DNA of 64,000 nt from positions 1,054,001 to 1,118,000 of the forward strand of contig CP145416.1 in the NCBI GenBank assembly GCA_036867785.1, given 5' to 3'. Every line of letters begins with the position of its first letter. Position 1 is the stretch's first letter. Both the position numbers and the translations under genes were made by a program. The notes below the pieces were generated by a model. It searched no databases, was not told the DNA's origin, and saw nothing but the letters and a program-made list of their open reading frames with translations. Shown here one piece after another: positions 14,531 through 62,800 of the stretch. Source of the stretch: Plasmodiophora brassicae (Eukaryota).

Positions 14531-17500
14531 TGTGCTAACGCCGCCGCTGCCCACTACGGGGGCGGTCGGTCGCAAGAGTCGGCGCCTGGTGATATAACGA
14601 ACTGATGTATTTGGACAGGATCGTCACAGCAAGGGCCGCTGCGGGGTCGAGTACGGTCATGATCATGTGACCGGGTGGCAGCAGCATCTGAGCAGCATCA
14701 TCTGAGTACTGGTACTCTGGATGAACACTCCCCGTGTTAGAAATCTGCTAACAGTCGTGAGCAGAGCGGGTCTCCTTCGGCTTGTCGTTCGAGGAAGGCC
14801 CTGACGATATCAGGAACATCGGCCGCCATGACCGAGTAAGGTTCCCATGAATTGTCGGTGGCATCGAATCCGATCCAGTTGATCAGTAGTTCAGTGTCAC
14901 CTGACGTAGAGTTGACTCGAATGTCCTCGACTGCGTTGACTTGGTAAGCCACGCCGGTGAGCGCGATGTTGTGCTTCAGGGAAGAGGTGACATTCAAGTG
15001 CGCATCTGCATAGAACATTAAGCGCTGGGCGTGTACATCTGAGATACGATCAGTCAAGAGATCTCGAACTCGATACACCCAGTCGTTGCTGGTGTCGATA
15101 ATCTGGGCAGGTCCAGTCCAGTTGTACTCGGACTTGGAGTGCTTGCCATGGTTGGCCACGAGAACATAGTCGCCCGTCGTGAAGTTGATCTCGCGAACAT
15201 TGCGTCGGCGACGCCGGGCGCGTTGCTTGAGATCACGTAGATGGGTGCGTGTACGTGCCACTGCTTTGTGCATGTCCTCGAGAGAATCGATAAGTTCCGT
15301 CGTCATTTCCTTGAGACGGTCAGGGGTCAACGGTACGTCGATAACCGCGTCGATGCGTTTGTTGAAGATAATCGAGATAGGTGTCGAGGGTGGCAAACCC
15401 GTAAACATCGTGACAGGCGCGTAGCCCACACTTGATCGAACAGTGTGATTTACCGTCATGTTGATCAGCGGAAGGACATACGGCCAATCCTGGAATGGAA
15501 GATTTAGCTCGGAGAGGAGGGACTTCAGCAGAAAGAGAAGCCGCTTGTTGACAACCTCAACCGTGCCGTTCGCCCAAGGTGTGTAGGCAGTTGTGAAATG
15601 ATGGTTGCAGTGTAACCGGCTATTAAGCTCGGCGATAACCGCGTTTTTGAAGTGTGTGCCGCGGTCAGAGACATGTTGGAAAACAATGCCGAAACGTTTG
15701 AACCAATCCAGAAGAGATTCGGCGACAACGCTGTGATCCGCGAATTGACAAGGAATTAACTCGACGAATGCCGTGGCGTCGTCCTTCAGAACCAGAACAT
15801 AACGAAGTTGATGAGAATCGCCTGGACGAGGTTTGGATAAGAACAGAAAGTCATAGTGGATGACCTTATTGGGCTTGTCCGCATGCATAGCCGTGCCAAA
15901 AGGTCGGGGAATCATCGAATCTTTGTTGCGTAGGCAGTGTAAGCATTTGTCCACAAATGCACGAACAAAGGAATCCAGATCAGGCCACCAGAAGAGTTGT
16001 GCGATGCTCGAAATAGTCGATGCAGCAGGTTGATGACCAGACAGTCCCATATGTGAAATCACTGCGATGCGTAGCTGCAGTGCATGTGATGGTACCCAGA
16101 GTTGATTGTCTGGAGTACGCCAGCCAGATTCCGGGCTAAGGTGGAGAGACATGTCCCCTTCGAGTTGGAGAATATCGGAAACGGCAGATAGGTCGTGTTG
16201 GCGAATGTAGTCGGTCTGAGCGTTACTAATCTCGTCGACAGACGGCCAGATAAACTCATCGGTCATCTTGTAATCGTCGAAGTCAAGATTAATTGCCATA
16301 TGACGAATAGAACGGAACGATGGAGGGGAAAATGAGGAGAGTGGTTGCAGGGCGACGCCCCACCGCGTGGCGAGGTCGGCCCAAACGTTGTCCTCCCCAG
16401 CAATGTGCTCAATGTGAAAATCTAGGTCGATAATCTGAAGTCGCCAGCGCTCCAAGCGATCGCCGGTCGTCCGACTAATTCGTGCAACCGAGGCTGGGTT
16501 CAGAATGAAAACCAAATTACGGTGGTCCGTGAAGATTCGAAGTGCCAACTTTGACATAGATATGAAGTGTCTGAGGCGATAGCAGCCTTCGATGATGGCG
16601 TAGGCCTCCTTCTCAATGGTCGCCCACTTCAATTGAGAACCACGGAATGTCCCCGAGATGAACGACAAAGGTTCGTGGTGTTGCTCACCGTACGGAAGAT
16701 CAATATCTTCCGGAGGGATCTGCGACAGGACAACAGACCAGAAACGGTCACTCGCATCCGGAAAGAGACACATGATCCATTCGTCCTTGGGGTGCGCCAG
16801 CGTCATGGCCTCCGATAGACGATGCTTCAGAGAATTGAAACTGGTGAGATGGTCAGTGGTCCAGCCGATGTCGGCTAAACGAACTCGACGTAGGTGTGAT
16901 TTCTTCAGACTGCTGACAGAACGAGAAGCGGACAGAAGTAGATCCTGTAGCGGATGAACATGTGCCGCGAATTGAGGGATAACAGAACGGACCCAATTGA
17001 GGCCCGAGAGGAACTGTTGGAGATCAGCAGCCGTGATAGGAGTTGATAGATCGTGCAAGGCGTTGAGATACGAGCGATCGAACGACACTCCATCAGCGGA
17101 TATAACGCGACCGCACCATGTCACTGAAGTGAGATATAACTGGCAGCGATCAGGGTTGAGTTTAACTCCAAACTCGTCGAAAGCGTTGAGAAGAGATTCG
17201 AGTGTGTCCATGTAGGCTCCGAATCCAGATACGTAGCCGAGGATATCGTCGATCCAGAGTAGGGCGCAGATATATAGAAGTTTCCCCAACACCTGTTGCA
17301 TTCCCGCCTGGAACGCAAACACGCAATCAGCGATTCCCTGGATGATGCGCCTGGGTGTAAACGTGGCGATGTGCGTCATGAACGAGCAGGCCTCCTGCGA
17401 ATCAGGGTGCAACGGAAATTGCCAATAGCCTTTAAAGGCATCGAACAGCATGAAGATGGTCGCGGAACGTAGGTAGGTCAGGATGATGTCGATGTGAGGC

Positions 17501-19866
17501 ATCGGCCATGCAATGCGTTCGGTCTGTTTGTTGACGGCTTCATTGATGTCGACGGTCAGCCGATGGCCGCGAACCTCCGTGTCCTTCTTGTCGACGACCA
17601 GACACGGCGACGCGTACCTGCTGTGCGGATTGCGGTACACAAAATCGTTTTCCGCCAAGGTTCCTACGTGATCATCCATGAATTTTTGATGTTCGAGGGT
17701 ATACCTTCGTGTTCGGCAACGAACAGGACGAGCATCTGCTTTGAAGTGTAGTTTCAGTGGACTTACTTTCGCAGGTGGATCACGGCCAAGCTTCGTTCGC
17801 CATATGTCTTTGTGTCGATTGACAGTTGTGCGTAGACGCGGGACTTGATCGTTAGGGAAACCGGAGTCAGTTGCACGTTGTATCATCCGGTCTATTGCCC
17901 TGTCCACGTCTGTATCGGAGTGTTCTCCGATTTCGACATCATAGTCGTCACCCGGATCATTGGTGTCCAATTGGGGCTCATGATCGCGAGTTGTTCCACT
18001 TACCTCCGGGTGTCTTACCGCTCTCATCGTGATCCCTTGACCACCTGGGGCGTGACGTTCCGGGGTCGGATCCGCTTCGATGATGATAGGACCATTTGCC
18101 TCGATTAACATCTCCTTCAGTTGTGTAGCTGGATTGATACCCAACGCGTCCAGTTCCGGGGCTCCTAAAAGGACAATGTCATCAGATAGGTCTTCGCGAC
18201 ATACGTTGATTTCCCGCCCGCGTAGATGTGCAGGTTTGCCATGCGAAGGTGGGACAATGGTGATGTCCACGATCGCTGTGGCGACAATTGTTGTCGTAGC
18301 CCCGATCGTTGCAAGTTTCGCCTCCGTTGGATGGTCGAACACTTTGACTGGGACATGCTGGATGGCTTGAATCCGTAGCAGTTGCGATTGCGAAATGACG
18401 GTCTTCGTCGCACCACTATCGGCTTCGAATGGAAGGTCGAGCGAGTTCTGGAAGCGAAGTCTCATAGGGGACGGTGTTGACGGCGACGGCGGGCCCATGC
18501 GCTTTGCCGTGTCTGCGTTGCCCTTACTCTCCTCCTTCTCTTTGCGCTCTTTCTGGAACTTTTCAATGGCAGCTTTGCGTTCTCCTTGAGTTGCCTTCGG
18601 GCACACTTGGACCCAGTGCTGCTCCTTGCAGATTAGGCAACCTGCCTTTGGAGGATCCTTACCTTCGAAACGTTTTCGGATGTGCTCGGGGATGTCCCTC
18701 GATTCGTCTTTCGTTTGCGATGTGGACGATTGAGCTGTCTTCAGTCCGATCGGATTTGTCGGATGCTTGCCGCCATTCCTATTCGGAGCAACAACGTCCT
18801 TACCTTTCTTACCTGCAGGTGGGGACATGGTCTGCGCTGGAGACTTCTTCTTCTCAGCTTGCAGCCGGAAGTGTTTGTCCTGCTCTTTGGCAAGACGGTC
18901 GACGAGGTCGAAGAATTTGAGCTCGTCCTTCTCAGCGTCCCTGCACCCTCCGAACTCGATCGCGCGTTCGACTAGAACCGCAAGGTCAGTGGGACGGATA
19001 CCTCCGCGTAATACCTTGATCTTGCGCTTGGTTCCTTTCGTTCCTTTGGCGTATGTGTCTTGTAGCCCATAGTCGTCGATTAGCTCATCGAACTTGGCGA
19101 AGAAAGACGTGACACGTTCCTCAATACTCTTGATTGACAGGTTCATGACCACTGTCTTCGTGAGAAGCGCCTTGATGTCTGTCGAACTCTCGACATCAGC
19201 CTCCCTGCGTTGGACTGACCTCAAGTAGCTCATGATGTCGCCATCCGTGATCGTGCTGGCGGGTTGACGTAGGCGATATTTCGACATCCCTCTGAGGACG
19301 TCCTCGGTAATGCATGACTTCACCGTTGGCGGATGAATATCCTCCTTGTAGATCAGTCGGCGCTCGTTAACGATCTCGACGTGTTTCCTATATTTCTTGA
19401 GGAAATCGTTAATTCCGTCCTTGGCCGTAAGGCTCAGGGTACGTAGGATGGGCGGTTTCAAAGGCATAAAGATCGGGCTCTTACCGTGCAGGTTTGTTGA
19501 CTGAAGCCCTCGATCGATTTCGTCATCTGTCGACGATTCATGCTCCTTGGCCTCGGCGTCGGAGTTGGTCCTGGCGTCGTCCTCCATCTGTAGACGAACG
19601 GGCGCTCTGCGGCCACCTCCTGCCATTAAGTGAGTTCGTTTGCTTGGGGCTCTTTGCGCAAGAAGCTTCTGTGCTAACGCCGCCGCTGCCCACTACGGGG
19701 GCGGTCGGTCGCAAGAGTCGGCGCCTGGTGATATAACGAACTGATGTATTTGGACAGGATCGTCACAGCAAGGGCCGCTGCGGGGTCGAGTACGGTCATG
19801 ATCATGTGACCGGGTGGCAGCAGCATCTGAGCAGCATCATCTGAGTACTGGTACTCTGGATGAACA
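14531..19866 (-). mobile_element. Full-length Ty3/Gypsy chromodomain-bearing LTR retrotransposon
   Basis: 197-bp LTRs at 14531-14727 and 19670-19866 (TG..CA), identical by eye; 5-bp TSD agatc; single intact ORF. Confidence 0.97.
14737..19626 (-). CDS. Gypsy gag-pol polyprotein (Gag with zinc knuckle, PR, RT, RNase H, IN, chromodomain)
   Basis: CLICKEQHWVQVC knuckle; ADSGA protease; FDAFKGYWQ and LLWIDD in RT; DAS...EKEAYAI...TDHRNL RNase H; HHCC plus SDRGTHF...NGTVE integrase; C-terminal LLINWIGFDATDNSWEP chromodomain. Confidence 0.97.
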   Translation of the reverse strand: MAGGGRRAPVRLQMEDDARTNSDAEAKEHESSTDDEIDRGLQSTNLHGKSPIFMPLKPPILRTLSLTAKDGINDFLKKYRKHVEIVNERRLIYKEDIHPPTVKSCITEDVLRGMSKYRLRQPASTITDGDIMSYLRSVQRREADVESSTDIKALLTKTVVMNLSIKSIEERVTSFFAKFDELIDDYGLQDTYAKGTKGTKRKIKVLRGGIRPTDLAVLVERAIEFGGCRDAEKDELKFFDLVDRLAKEQDKHFRLQAEKKKSPAQTMSPPAGKKGKDVVAPNRNGGKHPTNPIGLKTAQSSTSQTKDESRDIPEHIRKRFEGKDPPKAGCLICKEQHWVQVCPKATQGERKAAIEKFQKERKEKEESKGNADTAKRMGPPSPSTPSPMRLRFQNSLDLPFEADSGATKTVISQSQLLRIQAIQHVPVKVFDHPTEAKLATIGATTTIVATAIVDITIVPPSHGKPAHLRGREINVCREDLSDDIVLLGAPELDALGINPATQLKEMLIEANGPIIIEADPTPERHAPGGQGITMRAVRHPEVSGTTRDHEPQLDTNDPGDDYDVEIGEHSDTDVDRAIDRMIQRATDSGFPNDQVPRLRTTVNRHKDIWRTKLGRDPPAKVSPLKLHFKADARPVRCRTRRYTLEHQKFMDDHVGTLAENDFVYRNPHSRYASPCLVVDKKDTEVRGHRLTVDINEAVNKQTERIAWPMPHIDIILTYLRSATIFMLFDAFKGYWQFPLHPDSQEACSFMTHIATFTPRRIIQGIADCVFAFQAGMQQVLGKLLYICALLWIDDILGYVSGFGAYMDTLESLLNAFDEFGVKLNPDRCQLYLTSVTWCGRVISADGVSFDRSYLNALHDLSTPITAADLQQFLSGLNWVRSVIPQFAAHVHPLQDLLLSASRSVSSLKKSHLRRVRLADIGWTTDHLTSFNSLKHRLSEAMTLAHPKDEWIMCLFPDASDRFWSVVLSQIPPEDIDLPYGEQHHEPLSFISGTFRGSQLKWATIEKEAYAIIEGCYRLRHFISMSKLALRIFTDHRNLVFILNPASVARISRTTGDRLERWRLQIIDLDFHIEHIAGEDNVWADLATRWGVALQPLSSFSPPSFRSIRHMAINLDFDDYKMTDEFIWPSVDEISNAQTDYIRQHDLSAVSDILQLEGDMSLHLSPESGWRTPDNQLWVPSHALQLRIAVISHMGLSGHQPAASTISSIAQLFWWPDLDSFVRAFVDKCLHCLRNKDSMIPRPFGTAMHADKPNKVIHYDFLFLSKPRPGDSHQLRYVLVLKDDATAFVELIPCQFADHSVVAESLLDWFKRFGIVFQHVSDRGTHFKNAVIAELNSRLHCNHHFTTAYTPWANGTVEVVNKRLLFLLKSLLSELNLPFQDWPYVLPLINMTVNHTVRSSVGYAPVTMFTGLPPSTPISIIFNKRIDAVIDVPLTPDRLKEMTTELIDSLEDMHKAVARTRTHLRDLKQRARRRRRNVREINFTTGDYVLVANHGKHSKSEYNWTGPAQIIDTSNDWVYRVRDLLTDRISDVHAQRLMFYADAHLNVTSSLKHNIALTGVAYQVNAVEDIRVNSTSGDTELLINWIGFDATDNSWEPYSVMAADVPDIVRAFLERQAEGDPLCSRLLADF

Positions 19867-30888: not shown

Positions 30889-33800
30889 GAGTGTTGCGAA
30901 AAAAGTTCGTACGAACTTACGAACTTCGGTACAAAAAAAATGACCTTTACGAACTTCGGTACAAAAAATGACCTTTACGAACTTCGGTACAAAAAAAATG
31001 ACCTTTACGAACTTCGGCATAAAAAATATACCTTTATGAACTTCGGTGTATAAAACCTTGGCGAACACTGACGTACTTAAGGTATGTAGTTTGGCGGGCT
31101 TCGGGAGGGTGCCTACAATGAACCACATGCAATCGTACCGTCAATGCCAGCGACGGAATTGTGCCCGTCTCGGCGCAGACAGATAACGGACGGATTCGTT
31201 CGGCGAAAAGAACAGCTTTGAAAGATTAACCGCGTAGCGCAAACGTATTCACAGCACTATAAGGTCTGTATTGAACAGGCCGAAACCGCAGGAAACATCC
31301 GACAAGACACGATCACTTACGTTCGTTCAACAGGCTGTTTCTTGTTCGCCATTAACGGCGCGCTGGCGGGATCGAAGGGAGGACAGGGGGTTCGTGTTTC
31401 GCGCCGATCGCGCTCCTCATGCCTGGACAGTCATAGGTCCATCAACTGTCACCCACAATGTCATTCCGAGGTACCCAGTCCCGGCCAGCTGGGTGCGCAA
31501 AATATCGTCTGCTTCCAGCAATGTCGTCAGCTCTACCTTCTGAGCAGCTGTCAGCCCCGTCGTCAGGCATTCGTCCGCCAAATGGTACGACAGCTGCTTA
31601 TTCCATTGACGCAGCTCGTTTCGGGTTACAATAACCAACCGGCGCTGGTCCCGCTCTATGGCGTTCCCGCAGGTTTGGCAAAGCGGCTTAGGGCCTCTGA
31701 CCGAAACCTGTTGAACAGACATCCCCAGCGGATAACGTTTGCGCCTCTGTTGACCACGTTGCTCGCTTCTCTGATCGCTGGTCCCAGGTGACCGCCCCTG
31801 ATCACTGATCAGACATGGTGGGGAAAACTGACGGCAACGTTTCCGAAGGTGTAGGCGGATCATTTCGACTGTCGGGGGGCACAACGCGGGTAGCAGGACG
31901 GGGGGTTTGCTCTGAACTCGTATCCGCATTTCGAGCCGGTCGATCAGTCTTAAGATACCATAAGCGCCCGAGCACGTGTCCATTCAGCGTTCTACTATCC
32001 GCCTTGCGCACACAGGGACTCATCATGCCGTCGTAATACACAAATTCCCCTCTCAGGAGGACGAGCGATGCGAAGTGGTTTCGGCGACAATTGCGCACGA
32101 CCATGGCGGCAAGGTCATATTGCCATGCTCCGAAGGTCAGTGTCACCGGTTGTGGAGTATTCCACGCGGCGCTGCGTTGTGGTAAGTCGGAGTGAAGAAT
32201 AATTTCTACCAGTGGCGGATAGTGCTGGATGACGTAAGATTGCAGCGACAAAGACCCTGAGCAGGCAGCAACGTGAGATTCCTGCGGATCGACACAGGTC
32301 ATGTCGATTGCGCTGCATGTCAGGAACCCATTTTGGGAATCGAAATCCCTGCCGAGGTATGCATCAACCATCGCCTGGGTTACAGCCGAAGAGCTCAGCT
32401 GCATGATGTTCCGGGAATCAAAGTCCAGTAGAGCGCACTCCCGAGTCCTTAGTGCAACTCGGTTGTGGCACGAAGAATTCGAACACAGTAGCCGATCCGC
32501 GATAACCATCCTGAACAAGTCTGGAACAACATTGGAGAAATTGTCTCCAAAGTTGTTCCACATGTCGTGGTGGCCGGTTGACGGATAGCCTAGGCACCGC
32601 GTTGCCCACAGGAATCGGGCTTCCTCATGAGAGCCTTGCCCAATAAGGGTAACTGCTTCCAGCAATTGGGGGTGGCTTGCAGGTATATGTAGACCCCAGT
32701 ATTTCTATGAAAATATCGGTATCCATCGACGGTCAGCGAGGCGCAGTCGCAGCACGAGTGAAAACGTACATGTAAGATGAACACCGTCATTAGGCCTGTG
32801 TCCACCGCGCAGGTGTTGACTGCGTCAAAGGCTCTGGACATGAAACATCAACTGCCGTTCGCTTCTGTGTTAACTGCCAACTGCTTACCCGTAACGGAAT
32901 CCCCAAGGAAGACTGTGTCGTGACAACGCGTCATGATGCACAGGAGGCGGATCATCCAATGCCTCAACAGGCGACATGACCTTTTCTGCTGGAGGAGAAC
33001 GAGGGCCTTTAGGCACTATCGTCGGCAGCAGCAGATCTGCACCTTCGTCGCGCCTAGACGGAATCGGACTTGATGGCGGCACAGTCTGATCGGGTTGATA
33101 CCAAACGCGGCACACTTTGGAGTGGCGGAACTTCTCCTTTTCGGGCCGCGTCTTAAGCCACACTAGTTTTGTTTTCGACATACCATCATAGAACAAGCAG
33201 GCACCCCCAATGTAGATAATGGACGTGAAATGTCCCCCCGAACCGAATATGACTGCTGCTAACCGGAATGTCGTGCCGTTCAACGTGATGGTACAGGATG
33301 GCTTAGCTATGCAAGCGCGAGGCACGTACTCGAATTCAAGTATCAAAGGTGGCCCAATCACGAACTTCCAGCGGGAGAGCGTGCGCACCCCCGAACACAT
33401 GTATGCGCCCCCCTGGTTATCGTCCAGCACGCGAAATGCACTATCAGGCTTCGAAAGCCTAAATGCTTCGTCCACACTCTGCGTGCAGCGCGTGACCCTG
33501 TCGCCAATCAATGAATCCACCATAGATTGTTGAACAGTCATGGAAGAATCGTCGACGTCAAGGTCCTCTGGAATTACTTCGAAACCTGGTCGGCGCATCT
33601 CAACGCGATTCGATCGCTCTGGACAGTGCTCGGATGTGCAGTCAGACTTTTGCACAACGGTAAAAAGAACAAATTCGGGACGAAGCGATGCACAATATCT
33701 TCCACAGTGCCAAACAGGTCCACAATATTGGACTTCGGTATCGTCGGCACGTGATTGCCTGCGAGCCACAGCAGACGCGCCTCATTATTCCTCTCCTGTG

Positions 33801-36391
33801 AAATAAGATCCATGACCTGACCGAGCACAGGACTGTCGTTGTCACCTGACGGCAACCGAAGCTTCCCGTACTCGAAGAGCAGGTAGAGAGTCATGAGGCC
33901 CGTGTCCATCGGGCACGTATTGGTAAACCGGACACCGTTCGAGGTGAACCCCCATGGGATACCGAATGTTTTCCAATCCACTAATGATCCAAGTTTGGGT
34001 ATCGTATTCGTGCTCCCAGGTGGGCGCCCTCGTAGTTTCTTGATGGCGTTGACCGATGCAGATCGATGAACCGATTCCTTTTGACGTTCGCTCCGCTTTC
34101 GAAGAAGGTCTTTCGTTGTATCCGGGGGCCTGCCATCAGACCGAGTCTTCTTTGTAGATCTAGATCTACTAGGATTGTACCGCTCCTGAATGCCAAGACA
34201 AGCATTGGTGTATGCCTGCGCGATTTGTTTGACGAACAAGTATATGGGGGGAATGACGGTGACGATGGATTGTTTTCCGTTGCAGCAGCGTTTTAGACTG
34301 CCGCCAACGCTTTCCTGCGCGTTCGTGTTATTTGGCAACAGCGAGATGTCCCCTGTTGCCAGAGCCGGAAAGATGTGTCGACCTCTCAGCTCGTGGAGAT
34401 GCCAATCGAGCCATCGCCGTGCTTTCGGAAATCGCTGATACAGAAACTGTAGCCGGTTCGCGAAATCAATCGGGTCGACTACAATCGTGAGCGACAAAAC
34501 TGTTTCGTAAAATAATGCCTTGTCATCAGGGTGGATGACACCAGCGTTTCGAGATACACGGCTTAGGGTCCGCTTAAAATGCACGTCGCAATAGCGGTAG
34601 AAATGATCGAGCGCCAGAACGGCATTATCATCCAAATGACAGTGCGCCCTGAGAGCTGCCTCAAACCCAGCACGTTCAGCGTCTGAAAAGTCGCTGGTGT
34701 TGCCCGGGAATTGGTGTTCCCATGCGTCCACATCTACCGGCATTTCCATTGTGCTGAAGAGAGTCAGGAAGTGCCGGCGGTAATGTGCAGCACTCTTGCC
34801 AGTCAGGATCGATATCAATAACGGGACGTGACGCGAAAGCATTGGACAGTATGCAGTCGTCATCGTTACGTTTGCGTCAGGAAGTATGGGATCGACAAGG
34901 ATGCCTTCGATGGAATCGGACTGCATCGGAGATTCGCAAGCCCTTGCCCTCTCCTGCATGAACGCTGTCTGCAGACAAAGCGCATCGGAACCGATACATA
35001 CGAACAACTTTTCACCGATTTCCTTTTCAAACGCTAGTACTTCAGACAAGGATGAAGTGGGCGGCTTAATGAGTTTGGTCTTGATGTACCTGAGGCGGTC
35101 AATGTTCGCCAGGCTGTGATGAATCTCACCTGATGCTGGTCGAGTCATTGTACCCATCTGTAGCTGCTTGGGAGTGAGTTCGGGCGCCGTATGAATGATA
35201 TGAGCGAGTTCATCCATTGCTTGGGCACTTGGTCGTATGGCTTCCGGTTTGCGATGACGATGGTATCCCTGATGAATGAACGTAATGATATGGGGGTTGT
35301 CGCTAGTTTTCTCGATGATTAAAATTGCCCGACATGCAATATGAGAAACTGGACGATTGTGCACAGAGCATGTCGCAGGACAAGGCGCAGGACGACAGTG
35401 TTTTGAGCGCCGCTTGGGCAGTTGGGGACGAACGGTGAACCCGCATCCGTCCACTGGGCAGACAAACACCCCCAGACATGACTTCTTCACTCGTACAGAG
35501 GAGGTACTGAACCGCGCCATGGACCAAGATGTGTTCAGGTATGAAACCTTCGATTCGTCAGTGGGTACAGATATGGTGTACGAAATGTTTCCATCCGGCC
35601 ACTCTGGATTGATCTCGGCTGGCGTAGCAACCTCGTGCACGGGATGCTGTCGCAGATGATGGGTTCGCCCAGCAGGAAGGGGCAAGTGGGGGTCTCGCGA
35701 ATCCTGCTCGGCCGCTGAAGTATGGACGTCGTCGTTCGCGCTGGTACCCCGCAATGTATGTAGAGGAACGGCCAAGTGCCGGTCCCGCGAGTCGTGTTCG
35801 GCCGCCAAAGTATGGCCGTCGTCAGCTGGCGTCAAATCACGATCGTGTGTCCTGGCAGTACCGTTATGCCGCTCAGCTACACCAGCCACTGCACGTCGCG
35901 AGTCTGACAGCAAGTGGCTTCGCAGAAAAGAATCCACCCGAGCGTTCCACTCACCGTTGACGTCATTTGCCAAGAGCAGATCCAAAGCCAGACGGCATAC
36001 AAGAAACTTCGTAAATTCGTCTGTCTTCGACGCCATCAGCCCTTGCTGCCGACAGGCACGCCTGCAAGAATAGATCGAGACCAGCTCCTTAGTACGGTGG
36101 GACGATTCCATGCATAGAGAAGCTGGGTTATGTACTCTGTATGCTCAATCTCCTGTAGATTACATGATTTTTGTTAGCCTGCGTAGAAGCAGTGTTCGCG
36201 TGTACATGCCGTTGTAAACTCAACTGTTTTACACCGAAGTTCATAAAGGTATATTTTTTATGCCGAAGTTCGTAAAGGTCATTTTTTTGTACCGAAGTTC
36301 GTAAAGGTCATTTTTTTGTACCGAAGTTCGTAAAGGTCATTTTTTTTGTACCGAAGTTCGTAAGTTCGTACGAACTTTTTTCCATACACCC
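30889..36391 (-). mobile_element. Mutator-like (MULE) DNA transposon with long TIRs
   Basis: 9-bp TSD caataaaaa (30880-30888 and 36392-36400); TIRs of about 165 bp built from about 29-bp tandem units acctttacgaacttcggtacaaaaaaatg and a terminal palindrome aagttcgtacgaactt. Confidence 0.92.
31417..36111 (-). CDS. MULE transposase: GCM domain + DDE core + two USP/papain-like protease domains + PARP-type zinc finger (spliced; one frame break near 33665)
   Basis: EWPDG..SWSM..KKSCLGVFVC..RP..IACR..GYHRHRKPE (GCM); SDS..SDFSDAE..YCDVHF..NTNAQES (D, D, CxxH, E); two copies of NTCxxDTGL...HFxS..YDG; CQTC..YHLADEC. Confidence 0.75.
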
Positions 36392-56833: not shown

Positions 56834-59800
56834 TCAGGATCGGAAGAGGGAATCCAGGATTGCGCTCGCAGTTCGCGGGCTCCTCTTGTGCAGGCGGTTT
56901 TGCTGAGGGACCGGTACCGTGTACTCCTTGTACATGTCGAACAGGGTGACGGTAATACCAGCTAGCAATGGCCTACAGTCAAACGTTACATTAATACAAA
57001 TAACCGACAATTGTCGTATTACCCAGCAACGATTCCCTCTGGCCCAAACACGTACACGCCCATGACAACGCTTAGCCCGACAAAGTAGCTGTTGCCAGGT
57101 ATATACGACCGTATGATAGTGTCAACATAGATATCAGCAAACAGATGGGATACGACAATGATCAAACTGCGGACGTGATACGAGTTGAAGGCCACCCCTA
57201 TGGAGGCTGGAACCCAAATGATCTGGCGGGGCATCGTCAAAGCACGAACAGCGCACGAAATATTAAGATCACTCTACCCAAGTGCCCATGACCGGCATGA
57301 TTGACAGGATGCCGGTCAAGCAGGAGAGAATTGATTCAAGCAGTTCGAAGCGCTTAGGAAAGTGAAAGTCCCCAGTGTATCTAACGTGGGGGAAGCCGAC
57401 GTCCCCATGACGTCGCACACACAGTGGCACGGTCGCCACTGTGCACCAGTTGCGTCACGTCGTCGTGACTCATGGGTCGGCCACTGTCGCTAGCCTTCCC
57501 ATTATGAATCAGCCGCCCTAAGGCGCCAGCGACAGGTCCACCCGACCCATCCCGGCCGCCCTCTTCATGACCTCCACAGGTTCACGAGTGGTCGGCTTGG
57601 TGAGCGCGTCCGCCGGATTGTTCTTTGACGCCACGCGCTCGAACCGGAGCAGTCCCTCCTGGACGCACTCTCGCACATAGTGCCATTTCACCCGAATGTG
57701 CTTGTTCCGGTCCGTGACCCCGAGCGTCTTCACCATCTGCTCGGCAGCCGTGTTGTCCTCCAGCACAATCGACGGGTCCGTCAGAGTGAACCCGATGTCG
57801 GTGAGGAGCATCCGGACCCACACTACTTCACGCGCCAGCTCGCTGGCCGCCACGTACTCCGCGTGCGCTGAGGAGGTCGCCACCAGGCTTTGCTGCTTCG
57901 ATCGCCAGCTCACAGCTGCGTCCATCAGCGTGACGATGAATCCCGTGACCGACTTGGATGTGTCCGGGTCCATCGCAAAGTCCGAGTCGACCGCCGCCCG
58001 GGGCTCCGACTCCTTCACGTTGTCTTTGTTCAGTGCCATCGGGTCGAATTCAGTCGCCGGTGTCTTGCTCTTCGCGTAGATGATGCCGACATCCGTGTTG
58101 TTCTGGACATATCGCAGCACGTGGAGCATCGCCTCGAAATGCTCCCGACCCGGGTTGTTCAGGTGACGCGACAGCTGCGACACCGCGTGCGTGATTGTCG
58201 GCATCGTGCCGATCGACAGATGCGCCAGGCAACCAACGCCCTCGCGGTACCGCTCATGCTGGTGCGGAACACCGTCGGTTCGCCGGGGCATAATCTGCCC
58301 GACAGGCAGAGCCGTGGCCGGCGCGCGCAAGCGGCGCCCGGCGGCTGCCTCGTCGATGTCGGTCTGGAACCGCGCGACCACCTCCTTGGCGTACTGCTGT
58401 TGGTCGATCGTGATGCGCGTTGCCTCCTGCTTGATGCGCATCCCCAGGATCCATCTCGCGATGCCGAGGTCCTTCATCTTGAACTTCTTGCCCAACGCTG
58501 CCTTGACGTACTCGATGACGTCGGGATCCGTGCCAAACATCATAAAGTCGTCCACGAACACCCCGAGGATCGTGATCTGTCTGCGGCCGTCCTTCGTCGT
58601 GAACATAACGAACAGGCACGGGTCGCCGGTCACCCTTGTGAAGCCGATTTCGAACAGAACTGATACGAGCTTATCGTACCAGAGCTTCGGCGCCTCGACC
58701 AGGCCGTACAGCGCCTTCAGGAGCTTCATCACCTTGCCGCGTCCTCCGACCACGAAGTTCTTCGGCTGTTCACAGTAGATCGGGTACGGCAGGTCTCCAT
58801 TCAGGAACGCCGTCTTAACGTCCAGCTGGTGGATGACCACGCCCAGCATGGCCGCCAGCGCCACCATGATGCGCAACGTCGCATACCGGAGCGTCGGCGA
58901 GTACGTCTCCTTCTGGCCCTTGAACTTGTCGCAGCATCCCTTGACGCAGAAGCGGGCCTTGTGGCGCGTGATCTCCCCGTCCTCGTCGCGCTTCGTCGTG
59001 TGCACGAACATTGTTGGCAGCACTTGAGCGTCGGTCGGGCGGTCCACGATCTCATACGTGCCCGCTTCCTTCAGCGACTGCATCTCCTCGACCTGCGCCG
59101 CCAGGTACTTGTCCCGGTCAGGCCCGTTCTCGGCCTCGTACTCAGTGAGGAACGCGTTGCCAGCGTCCTCCTCCTCCAGGTAGCTGTCCTCGTTCTCGAG
59201 CGCCTCGTCCTGGTTGACCTGGTCCTCGTTGTCCGGGTCGTCGTTGGCCTCGTTGTCGTGGTCGACAGCATCTGCTGCTGCCGCCTGGTCGACGTTGTCG
59301 GCAGCCCCTGCTGCCGCCCTGGCGCTGGCCGCCCTCTGGCGCCGCGCTTCGCCGTCGTAGTCCACGTCGGCAAACCGAGCGGGCGCTCCTCTGATGCGCG
59401 TCGACCGCCTCGGTTCAGGGACGCCTTGAGCAGCAGGTCCTCGATCCCCGCCGCCCTGAGCTGCTTGCTCATCGCGTCCGTCATGCCGGTCTTCACCGGC
59501 ACCTGCGAGTTCCCTGGCACGGTCGTCCCCGCCGCCGCCTCGCTGAATGGCGCGGCCATCCTGGCCGCCGCCCTGTTGTTGACCGACGCGACCTTCTCGA
59601 TCGCCGTCGTCTTGTCGTGCGACGCGATCGTCCCGACCGCCGTCGTCTTCTTGCCCATGACGATCGTCTTGACCGCCATCGCCGCCTCCTTGCAGCTGGG
59701 CTTGCGCCGTCTCTTGGCGCTTGCGGGTCTCCTCTCCGCGGGAGCCGCTGTCATCCTTGAACGGGAATTCGTTGGGGAAGAAGACCACGTCCGAAGACTC

Positions 59801-62800
59801 GATCATCTTGCGGCTGTGCCACAGCAGCAGCCGGTACGCCTTCTTGTCGATGCACACCCCCATGTGGACCGCGCGCTCGGCCCTGGCGTCCAGCTTGCAC
59901 TTCTTTTGCCGCCGGATCCTGACCCACGCCTCGCAACCGAATGGCATCGCCCTCGACAGGTCTGCTTGTTCCCCCGTCAGTTCCTCGATTGGCGTCGTCC
60001 GGTGGCCGTGTCGTTGGAGCGGCACGCGGTTGGCTACCCACGTCTGATGCCGCCCGTTCTCGGTCCAGTACTTGCGCGGGACGCCTGACTGGACACGAGC
60101 TGCGCGCATCATCTTGACAATCTTGCCACCGAACGTCTCCGCGAGACCGTTCTGGTGCGGGCGGTCCGTGTCGCTGAACTCCTGTGCGATTCCCCGCTCG
60201 CGCAGCAGCTTCGCCAGGCGCGTCGAGGTGAACTCGCCGCCCTGGTCGGCGCGGAACGTGTCGACGCGTGTGCCGCCCATGACCTCGAGCCGGGTCAGCA
60301 CGTCCATGACGACTTGCTCCTGGTCACCCTTATTTGCCAGGTTGACCGTGGCACCGACACCAGTCGCGTGGTCAACGTAGCACGCCATGTACGTCTTTCC
60401 GTCATGCGACCTGGTGTCGAACGTCTGCAGGTCCGCCCCGACGATCTGCAGCTTCGAGAGCACCGTCCGTGTCCGTCTCCGCGGGATCGCCGTTCGGTTG
60501 AGGTTGGCCTCGATGCACACCTTGCACCTGGGCACCTCGTCGCTCGCCAGGTCGGCCTCGTCGATGTTGAGACCGGTGATTGCCCCGTTCTTGACTGCCT
60601 TTCTGATCGTGATCGTGGACAGGTGGCCGCACCTCGCGTGCGCCTCCGCCAATGATATCGTTCTGTCGCGCTTTACGTCCGCGGGCTTGCGCGTTTCCTT
60701 CTTCTCGGCCGGCTCCTCCTTGCTCGGGCTCTTGTTTTCTGGCTGGTTTGGATGATCGTGATCGGGGGCGGCCAGCGCCACCCCCGCTACTCGAAATCCT
60801 GGACCTTGTGCAGATCCAGGTAGTACAGGCCCTTGCGGACCGTACTGGTCACGATCGTCCTTCCGGCCCCGTCCAGGAGCCGGGCTGAGCGCGTCTGCTC
60901 ATGGTGCTCCGCGCCCGTCTTGCCGTCCTTGCCGAGCTGCAGGAGTGCCGAACGCACCGCGAAGATGTTCGCGGATGCATCTGGCGCGTACGCGACGTTT
61001 GTCAGCGTGATCGACTTGCCGTTAGCCAGCTTGAGGCGGACGTTGCCCCTGGCATGGACCTTGATTCGCTGCGGGCCGATGCCGCCGATCGTCGGCCGGT
61101 CCTTGTCGGCGATGAAGTCCAGCTCCTCGAAGTGCGCCTTGTGGGTGGACACGTGGCCGCACGTCGCCGCGTTGTCGACGATGAAGTCGCGGATGCCCTT
61201 CCGCGGCGCGTCCTCGACGCCCGCCAGGCTCGTCAGGAGCGCGATCGACGCCGAACCGCCTTCCTCTTTGCCCCCCTTCCGCTTGCCGTTCCTGGCCTTG
61301 CCGCGCTCGGCGTTGCCGGTCTTCTTGCGGCTACGGCAGTCGGCCGCCCTGTGTCCAGCCTTTCCACAGTTGAAGCACTTGCCGGAGAACCCCGTCGTCG
61401 TCATGGCCGCCGAGGAGCCGCTGTCGTCGTCGCCGCGCTCTATCGCTCCCCGCTTGTACTGAGCGAGCACTTCTGCGCGGACCTTGCTTTGCGTCAGCTC
61501 TCCGATGGGACCGCGCAGCATCGCGTTGACTAAGTCCTTGTACTCGGTGTATGGCAGCGAGATAAGGACCTTCGTCGCCATGTCCGACTCAGTCTTCGTC
61601 CGATTCGGATCCGCCCGGGCCAGGTTGATGCCCAGGTCGCGCATCGCCGTCAGGTGCGCCTTGGTCTCCGTGAGGTCGGCGCCCGCCTTAAGCTTTGTTG
61701 TTGACAGAAGAATGTCGAACATCGCCAGGTCCGTGCCCGTTTGGCCGGAATACTCCGTCTGGATGGCGCTCCACGCCAGGTCCGGACGGTCGTCGGGTAT
61801 GTCGAGTATCAAGGGAAGTTCGTCTTCATGCACGTTCTTCTTGATAGCGTACATTGCGTGGAGCCTCTCTTGCTCCGACGCCGGCTCTTCGTTGTGCCCG
61901 CGCGTCGCGGGCTCCACGGCCTTTTGCAGGCCCGACTTCTTGAGCATCGTCGTCATCGACGACGCCCAGACCAGGTAATTGTCCTTGCCCTTCAGCTGGA
62001 CGGAGATCTTGATGCCGGACTCCTTCAGGCCCGTCAGCCTTTCCTTCTGCGCAGCTTCCAGCCGCGCCAGACGATCCTTGAGCGCCGCGTTCTCGCGCTG
62101 GCCGGTCCCGCTCCCGGCCGCCGCTGCTTGCAGACGTTCAACCTCCGCCTCCAGCCGATCCTGCTGCCGCTGGGCCTCGGACAGCGCAGCGCTTATCTGG
62201 GCGATCACGGCCTCTGCTTGGGCCAGGTCGGCTGGGATGCTTGGGATCGTCGCCATCAGAGAGTGGGACTCTTAATCTGATTCAAGCAGTTCGAAGCGCT
62301 TAGGAAAGTGAAAGTCCCCAGTGTATCTAACGTGGGGGAAGCCGACGTCCCCATGACGTCGCACACACAGTGGCACGGTCGCCACTGTGCACCAGTTGCG
62401 TCACGTCGTCGTGACTCATGGGTCGGCCACTGTCGCTAGCCTTCCCATTATGAATCAAGAATGAGCGTGAACTGGATGCCGCAGATCTGAAAGGTTACAT
62501 ATGTTATGATTGCGTGCACAACGCCTATGCAAAGGTCAGGAAACGCCAGTCTAGGCGCTGACATCCACGTACCGATCAAAAGCGAGCACACGACTGTGCG
62601 AACGACGCTCCTCTTGAGACTCTTCACTAGGTTCCTCGTATCTGCCTCAGAGAACGGTGACAAGTCCTCGATCGTGCCCATGTGTGGCTCCGTCAGCAAG
62701 TAGAACAGGAACGACAGGAACGTGACAAATGCGACAATTGCATTGCTTGTACGACTGTCCAGAAAATATATCAATAAGTTCCTGAACCTCCAACAATATG

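Follow-up and report, generated by a model that had tools for sequence, protein, structure and literature searches.

A candidate -1 ribosomal frameshifting signal between protease and integrase in a Copia-type retrotransposon

The 64,000-nt stretch of Plasmodiophora brassicae contig CP145416.1 analysed here (positions 1,054,001 to 1,118,000; hereafter the window, in whose own coordinates positions are given) contains a single copy of a complete Copia-type long terminal repeat (LTR) retrotransposon, located on the minus strand at 57332-62457 (5126 nt), whose coding sequence is divided between two open reading frames (ORFs) that overlap. ORF1 encodes Gag and a putative protease (PR), and ORF2 encodes integrase (IN), reverse transcriptase (RT), and RNase H (RH). 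Retroelements need Gag in large excess over Pol, and the known means by which the Copia superfamily does so are +1 shifting, readthrough, splicing, or protein decay, always upstream of PR. We consider it very probable that this element uses -1 programmed ribosomal frameshifting (-1 PRF) at the heptamer G_GAU_UUC, stimulated by a hairpin just downstream, which would yield abundant Gag-PR and scarce Gag-PR-IN-RT-RH, as had been proposed from the window alone (the original prediction). The proposal is supported by an identical frame break in all four sequencing runs compared, by the same ORF1 end in 23 of 25 related proteins, and by a cassette of the same design in a related metagenomic locus.

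Read on the minus strand, the junction is ...AAG GTC CAG GAT TTC GAG TAG CGGGGGTGGC GCTG GCCGCCCCCG. The end of ORF1 (CAG GAT TTC GAG TAG), the -1 frame of ORF2, and the lack of an ATG ahead of its HHCC finger can be read directly, and the heptamer, the 6-nt spacer, and the 10-bp GC hairpin with one G-U pair lie exactly where the original prediction placed them (Table 1). Measured from stop to stop, ORF1 spans 60787-62271 (494 aa) and the open frame of ORF2 spans 57518-60898 (1126 aa); the two overlap by 112 nt, and the offset of their starts (62271-60898 = 1373, remainder 2) corresponds to -1. No methionine precedes the H-x4-H...C-x2-C finger of ORF2, the first lying well beyond it, and the ORF2 translation following a shift at the heptamer begins RVAGVALAAP.... 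Re-pairing of the heptamer is perfect in the A site, and its P site is of the G_GA type, not the canonical XXX. GGATTTC is the sole in-frame G_GAT_TTN among the 1585 codons of ORF1 and ORF2, neither of which contains a canonical X_XXY_YYZ site (Y = A or T) in frame, and inside the 112-nt overlap no other site has an A-site triplet of the U/A type. Its GAT is the minor Asp codon of the element's ORFs (20 GAT vs 101 GAC; GC content at third codon positions, 0.83), and the shift would need this minor codon because tRNA-Phe can re-pair only if position 4 of the heptamer is U. The hairpin ranks first of all 30-nt segments in the element (-24.3 kcal/mol, the next being -19.7 kcal/mol), and the 45 nt from the heptamer on fold with z = -3.56, none of 200 shuffles folding as well.

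The sole related DNA locus that we found carries the same arrangement. A scan for the cassette pattern returned three viral and 120 prokaryotic stretches, and tblastn with five lineage proteins over 124 loci matched only one of them, the metagenome locus L001 (1143 nt), whose PR part is 46% identical in amino acid sequence to that of the window; no further related DNA was present among 17 pattern matches in viral contigs or 131 in genome contigs. ORF1 of L001 ends CAG GAT TTT CGT TGA, followed by GGGGGGCGG-CAGAAA-CCGCCCCCC, which forms a hairpin of 9-10 bp (10 if the A of the stop pairs) with the same total length and place as that of the window and a spacer of 5-6 nt. The original prediction had held that heptamer, spacer, and stem should be conserved among relatives, and in L001 the heptamer, 6-nt spacer, stop, and hairpin all recur. 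The integrase of L001 is likewise in the -1 frame, which is closed upstream by a TGA at 525-527 and opens 3 nt before the heptamer. The -1 overlap is only 16 nt long and contains the heptamer and little else, and because this is the sole stretch that the two frames share, the site of the shift is fixed. As in the window, the hairpin outranks every other local fold (-24.0 kcal/mol, the next being -13.4 kcal/mol; z = -3.58, with 0 of 200 shuffles as good), and the codon counts of L001 (6 GAT vs 14 GAC; 3 TTT vs 10 TTC) mean that its heptamer, too, uses minor codons. When the stems were compared on an ungapped 45-nt alignment (a MAFFT alignment of 160 nt misplaced the 3' arm), seven pairs were invariant, one showed a compensatory change from C-G to G-C, one changed from U-G to C-G, and one was lost; 95% of the stem cells were paired, compared with 45-70% when the partner was slid. 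The junction combines a -1 ORF without a start of its own, a slippery heptamer, a stable structure within 5-9 nt downstream, and conservation of these features in diverged relatives, which together are the marks of a -1 PRF cassette.

Two further structures were considered at this site. In both minimum-free-energy folds, the hairpin is enclosed by a lower helix of 3-4 bp (UCG/CGA for the window, UUCG/CGAA for L001) that takes in the last bases of the heptamer and spans 60755-60799 on the minus strand of the window and 531-575 of L001; we attach no role to it. A pseudoknot between the loop and a downstream CCAGC, which formed part of the original prediction, was rejected: CAGC does occur 17 nt downstream in the window, yet its pairing would consume all four loop bases, and in L001, where an H-type pseudoknot should have kept the pairing, the loop finds no partner of even four bases within 100 nt.

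The break at the end of ORF1 is also shared at the protein level. A search for proteins of near-equal length returned two ORF1 relatives, 41-42% identical, that end in the same column as the window's protein, the three ends being ...QDFE (window), ...QDFQ, and ...QDFA. A profile search over 1.84 billion representative proteins gave 40 matches at E <= 1e-30, and a census of ORF1 ends was made on the 150 best profile matches together with the window's own proteins, 47 of which reach the end of the profile. Gln-Asp-Phe (Q-D-F) is present at the aligned end in 25 of these 47 (28-54% identical in the aligned subset), and 23 of the 25 stop within one residue: 19, including the window's P0003, stop one residue later, and four (P0012, P0017, P0020, and P0030) stop immediately. 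One of the other two, P0010, stops after four residues, and the other, P0011, continues. Among the proteins without Q-D-F, six end within 30 residues and 16 run in frame into integrase; the latter are 499-2469 aa long, match at E of 2e-45 or weaker, and are ordinary single-ORF Copia proteins. As far as Q-D-F, P0011 shares 73% identity with P0008; beyond it, the protein continues with LLRGG... into the IN finger. An 'F-C-stop' tail, when read in the -1 frame, gives these residues, and P0011 therefore resembles a copy with one base inserted.

ORF2 of the relatives gives a matching picture. Their ORF2 calls (P0154-P0158, 46-55% identical) contain IN and RT domains only, and more distant Copia proteins (P0159-P0163) contain gag, PR, IN, and RT within one protein. 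For two ORF1/ORF2 pairs, the members of which probably share a contig (the contigs are of equal size), the back-translated tail and head allow a -1 overlap and no +1 overlap; in one of them, P0006/P0156, back-translation places the start of the ORF2 call at an AUG or GUG overlapping the ORF1 stop. The -1 frames of the window, L001, P0011, P0154, and P0156 all have Ala, Arg, or Gly followed by Gly two to four codons past the Phe and a Pro a few codons on, and the P0157 call starts at about this place with G-G and then Pro. These shared residues would fit a G run and a C run. Ten members of the lineage were looked up, and all derive from contigs of 1.7-15 kb in ENA, JGI, or Logan, with no informative name among them.

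The frame break is a reproducible property of the element. All sampled words of the element were present in 20 of the 24 runs listed (nine studies, four coded organism labels), and contigs were compared for four of the 24 (one for each organism label, from four studies), bearing in mind that contigs collapse copies and drop rare variants. From each of the four came a single 4976-nt contig that comprises the internal part and one LTR, shows 0 differences, and has no joint within the element. Contigs covering the flanks skip 55 nt (57223-57277) and 48 nt (62524-62571), both with GT..AG ends on the minus strand. Both skips appear to be introns, and because of these two short GT..AG skips we take the runs to be RNA (the RNA label being itself a guess) and the element to be transcribed at full length. 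Three of the four runs also join 57326 to 62458, with five letters common to both sides, as expected of an empty site, and the remaining run goes from a host exon into the LTR; because three runs have the empty site and one reads through from exon to LTR, the insertion is polymorphic and recent. The original prediction had argued from the identical LTRs that decay did not cause the break, and had named a private indel or sequencing error, or a spliced mRNA joining the frames, as findings that would speak against it. The break is unchanged in all four runs, the target duplication is intact, the ORF1 ends of the relatives agree, and, rare forms aside, no run contig has an internal joint.

In the mechanism that we propose, most ribosomes would translate Gag, its CCHC knuckle, and PR and terminate at the UAG at 60789-60787. 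In a minority, with tRNA-Asp and tRNA-Phe on GAU UUC, the mRNA entry channel would meet the 10-bp GC hairpin; these ribosomes would move backward by one base, re-pair on GGA UUU, and go on in the -1 frame, producing a Gag-PR-IN-RT-RH polyprotein of about 1579 aa. The stop one codon past the heptamer may contribute, as it reportedly does in pea enation mosaic virus (PEMV) RNA2. We infer the ribosomal shift at this site, its efficiency, and the contribution of the stop codon; what the analysis shows are the frames, the heptamer, spacer, and hairpin with their conservation, the retropepsin fold, and an intact element with a polymorphic insertion.

Several observations weigh against -1 PRF at this site. 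GGA is a non-canonical P-site triplet, and the fold z score is only -1.9 when taken over 106 nt. The hairpin is seen in two DNA sequences only, with one pair lost in L001, and its covariation, drawn from two sequences, is without statistical weight, 250 of 500 shuffles reaching each observed value. Conservation of Q-D-F could be partly a protein constraint at the C-terminus of PR; one of the proteins that end nearby without it, P0009, ends QPYFR, and there are five others. The run contigs could miss a minor spliced or in-frame form, and the stop-start arrangement of P0006/P0156, predicted by back-translation, represents a possible other route to ORF2 in that relative only.

The best of the alternatives, which we nevertheless regard as unlikely, builds on this last point: ORF2 would be expressed by termination-reinitiation at the stop of ORF1, by non-AUG or internal initiation, or from a minor spliced or subgenomic RNA, and IN-RT-RH would then be made without Gag-PR attached. 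The AUG or GUG in P0006/P0156 is what such a route would look like, and rare RNA forms are invisible in contigs; however, neither the window nor L001 has an AUG near the stop or before the HHCC finger, and no joint lies within the element in 4 of 4 runs. Expression by another route would also leave unexplained the invariant Q-D-F with its minor GAU and the presence, in both sequences, of the element's strongest hairpin 6 nt further on, and IN-RT-RH unlinked to Gag would be without its usual route into the particle.

A second alternative, to which we give very little weight, is that one base is added within the U run, by RNA editing or transcriptional slippage, which would bring the two ORFs into frame in a share of the mRNAs. 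The resemblance of P0011 to a copy with an extra base in the run is consistent with slippage, as are the longer U runs that are possible in some relatives (those with 'F-C' tails). The window's run has just 3 T and that of L001 has 4, however, which is short for polymerase stuttering; slippage would have no need of a hairpin at PRF spacing, and no inserted-base variant was found in 4 of 4 runs, though contigs drop rare variants. Least credible of all is that the element normally has one continuous ORF and that this copy is decaying, the break being either an indel private to it or an error of assembly: most Copia elements are single-ORF (according to the consulted part of PMC5580714), 16 of the 47 homologs that reach the profile end continue in frame, and P0011 within the lineage is fused, but the two LTRs do not differ, the target duplication is undamaged, four runs from four studies give an identical sequence, the empty sites in three of them indicate recent insertion, the ORF1 end agrees in 23 of 25 Q-D-F relatives and in L001, and the homologs that run on in frame are distant ones (E of 2e-45 and weaker).

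The remaining features of the element (Table 1) are those of an intact, transcribed, and recently mobile Ty1/Copia LTR retrotransposon (Pseudoviridae): the order gag-PR-IN-RT-RH, an RT of the RVT_2 type, LTRs with TG...CA ends (180 nt each, 100% identical), and a 5-bp target duplication. The ADALTK motif at the end of RNase H is as described in PMC5445492. The ATG of Gag is just 21 nt from the 5' LTR (62257-62277, minus strand), and those 21 nt begin with a stretch that resembles a primer-binding site (PBS) by position only. The 15 nt of this stretch do not resemble the usual site for the 3' end of tRNA-iMet, and no tRNA gene was found within the 64-kb window; by analogy with copia, the stretch may bind an internal part of a tRNA.

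Table 1. Coordinates of the Copia-type element and of its predicted frameshift cassette within the window
Feature	Position	Strand	Details
Target-site duplication ATTCT, upstream copy	62458..62462	-	5 bp; agrees with empty-site joint
5' LTR	62278..62457	-	180 nt, ends TGATTCA...TGAATCA; termini read directly
PBS-like stretch directly after LTR	62263..62277	-	by position only
ORF1: Gag, CCHC knuckle, retropepsin-like PR	60787..62256	-	489 aa (P0003) + TAG stop 60789-60787
Slippery heptamer G_GAU_UUC (candidate)	60793..60799	-	Asp-Phe codons of Q-D-F; G_GAU_UUU in L001
Spacer GAG UAG	60787..60792	-	6 nt, contains ORF1 stop; CGU UGA at equivalent place in L001
Stimulatory hairpin (predicted)	60763..60786	-	10 bp, one U-G pair, 4-nt loop GCUG
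ORF2 from the predicted shift onward: linker, IN (HHCC, rve, SH3), RT (RVT_2), RNase H (ADALTK end)	57518..60793	-	1091 codons + stop
3' LTR	57332..57511	-	from identical LTR pair
Target-site duplication ATTCT, downstream copy	57327..57331	-	5 bp

Pfam matches in ORF1 are Retrotran_gag_2, zf-CCHC, and Pol_BBD (E = 2e-10), and those in ORF2 are rve, SH3_retrovirus, and RVT_2, with the ADALTK motif at the end. The assignment of a protease to the C-terminal part of ORF1 stands as far as its fold is concerned. An AlphaFold2 model of ORF1 residues 340-494 (pLDDT 87) has as its best PDB match the PR of xenotropic murine leukemia virus-related virus (XMRV; Foldseek probability 1.00, E 5e-3; VIA Z 6.6, root-mean-square deviation 4.3, 101 aligned) and also matches human immunodeficiency virus type 1 (HIV-1) PR (Z 5.4); retropepsins top the list of structure matches, with Z values that are middling. 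The catalytic motif is D-N-A here instead of D-S/T-G. The Asp is invariant in the lineage, in which the motif is D-[NGSTH]-[AG], and D-T-G is present only in P0014 and P0016, both distant members. We therefore describe this domain, on the strength of the model, as a putative protease with a retropepsin fold. The full motif in the window reads D-N-A-A-T, vs D-S/T-G-A (61180-61200, minus strand; ORF1 residues about 361-365), and motifs of this type are kept in L001 and the nearest relatives.

The gene into which the element is inserted is transcribed from the minus strand (57223-57331 and 62458-62757, with introns of 55 nt and 48 nt), and its exons have no Pfam match. In run X8, a 292-nt contig aligns at 62087-62357 with 25 mismatches and 25 gap letters and represents a diverged second family member (LTR and start of gag) in one organism label. 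Elsewhere, the window is gene-dense eukaryotic DNA with short introns and 55.7% GC. A Ty3/Gypsy element on the minus strand at 14740-19692 has one continuous ORF of 1651 aa (RVT_1, RNase H, Integrase_H2C2, rve) and, in contrast to the Copia element, no frame break. An 856-aa ORF at 33577-36144 (minus strand) has a GCM-motif match (E = 7e-8), and other ORFs match kinase, COG2, Ras, adenosine deaminase, SDA1, ALG3, Yju2, and Nar1-like Fe-hydrogenase.

Our literature search, which left Gao et al. 2003 (PMC1370496) and Additional file 1 of PMC2806351 outside its scope, found no Copia element described as shifting by -1 between PR and IN. The mechanism and the type of heptamer are known; the position within the superfamily and the clade-wide conservation appear to be new. 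The chances seem to us evenly balanced that this element is the first recognised member of a widespread, unnamed Copia clade known only from metagenome and transcriptome contigs, in which the switch has moved to the PR-IN junction, leaving PR equal to Gag, and in which the cassette is umbravirus-like (G_GAU_UUY, one codon, stop, GC hairpin), with the stop a part of the signal. A conserved -1 signal after PR would constitute a fourth Copia layout, convergent with that of the alpharetroviruses, and the cassette of G_GAU_UUY, stop, and hairpin would work outside RNA viruses. It would also provide a compact natural signal of 45 nt, within a transcribed and recently mobile element, for studying how a nearby stop and a simple hairpin set frameshift efficiency, and it would warn annotators that elements of such layout are intact and not broken.

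The closest parallels to the heptamer are in plus-strand RNA viruses. In the portion consulted of the review by Atkins et al. (PMC5009743), G_GA shift sites are recorded in umbraviruses, dianthoviruses, insect flaviviruses, and mesoniviruses, and a G_GAU_UUU-type heptamer has also been proposed, in the literature as far as covered, for fungal and yeast totiviruses. The site of PEMV RNA2, G_GAU_UUU_UGG_UAG, contains a stop one codon after the heptamer that is needed for full frameshifting (PMC5009743 and PMC4737148, in their relevant parts). The site in the Copia element resembles those of PEMV RNA2 and the dianthoviruses in its G_GA P-site triplet, its UUU A-site triplet, and a structure just downstream, and the PEMV layout of heptamer, one codon, and stop is common to the window, L001, and 19 related proteins. 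It differs in being hosted by a retrotransposon rather than a plus-strand RNA virus and in that Z is C in the window. In addition, unlike in PEMV, the predicted stimulator is a simple local hairpin; a long-range element was not found, and none was sought.

In Rous sarcoma virus (RSV), PR is in the gag frame and hence equimolar with Gag. The same review, in the part consulted, puts gag-pol -1 shifting in RSV at about 5%, and the human T-cell leukemia virus HTLV-1 has a pro-pol frameshift (PMC7075266, in part). The arrangement described here is like those of RSV gag-pol and of HTLV-1 and mouse mammary tumor virus (MMTV) pro-pol in placing a -1 shift near the stop of the upstream ORF, with PR upstream and a structure downstream. 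Unlike RSV, HTLV-1, and MMTV, the element belongs to another superfamily, has the order PR-IN-RT-RH, and uses another heptamer, and its hairpin contrasts with the pseudoknot-type stimulators of RSV and HTLV-1.

Within the Copia superfamily, the parts consulted of PMC5580714 and PMC5009743 describe elements with a single ORF, with +1 shifting (Ty1, Ty2, and Ty4), with readthrough (Tca2), and with splicing (copia, EVD, and BARE), and the latter recounts a 2003 survey in which -1 gag-pol arrangements were mainly in animal elements. The element shares with these its superfamily and the need for an excess of Gag over Pol; unlike theirs, which act between gag and PR by a +1 shift, a stop, or splicing or consist of a single ORF, its solution would be a -1 shift located after PR. 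The Sireviruses have at their gag-pol junction a covariant hairpin with an 11-bp stem and a 4-nt loop (PMC5009743, in the same portion). The Sireviruses and the element described here are both members of the Copia superfamily with a conserved GC hairpin at an ORF junction, but the pol of Sireviruses either lies in the +1 frame or comes after a stop, their junction precedes PR, and their mechanism is unsettled.

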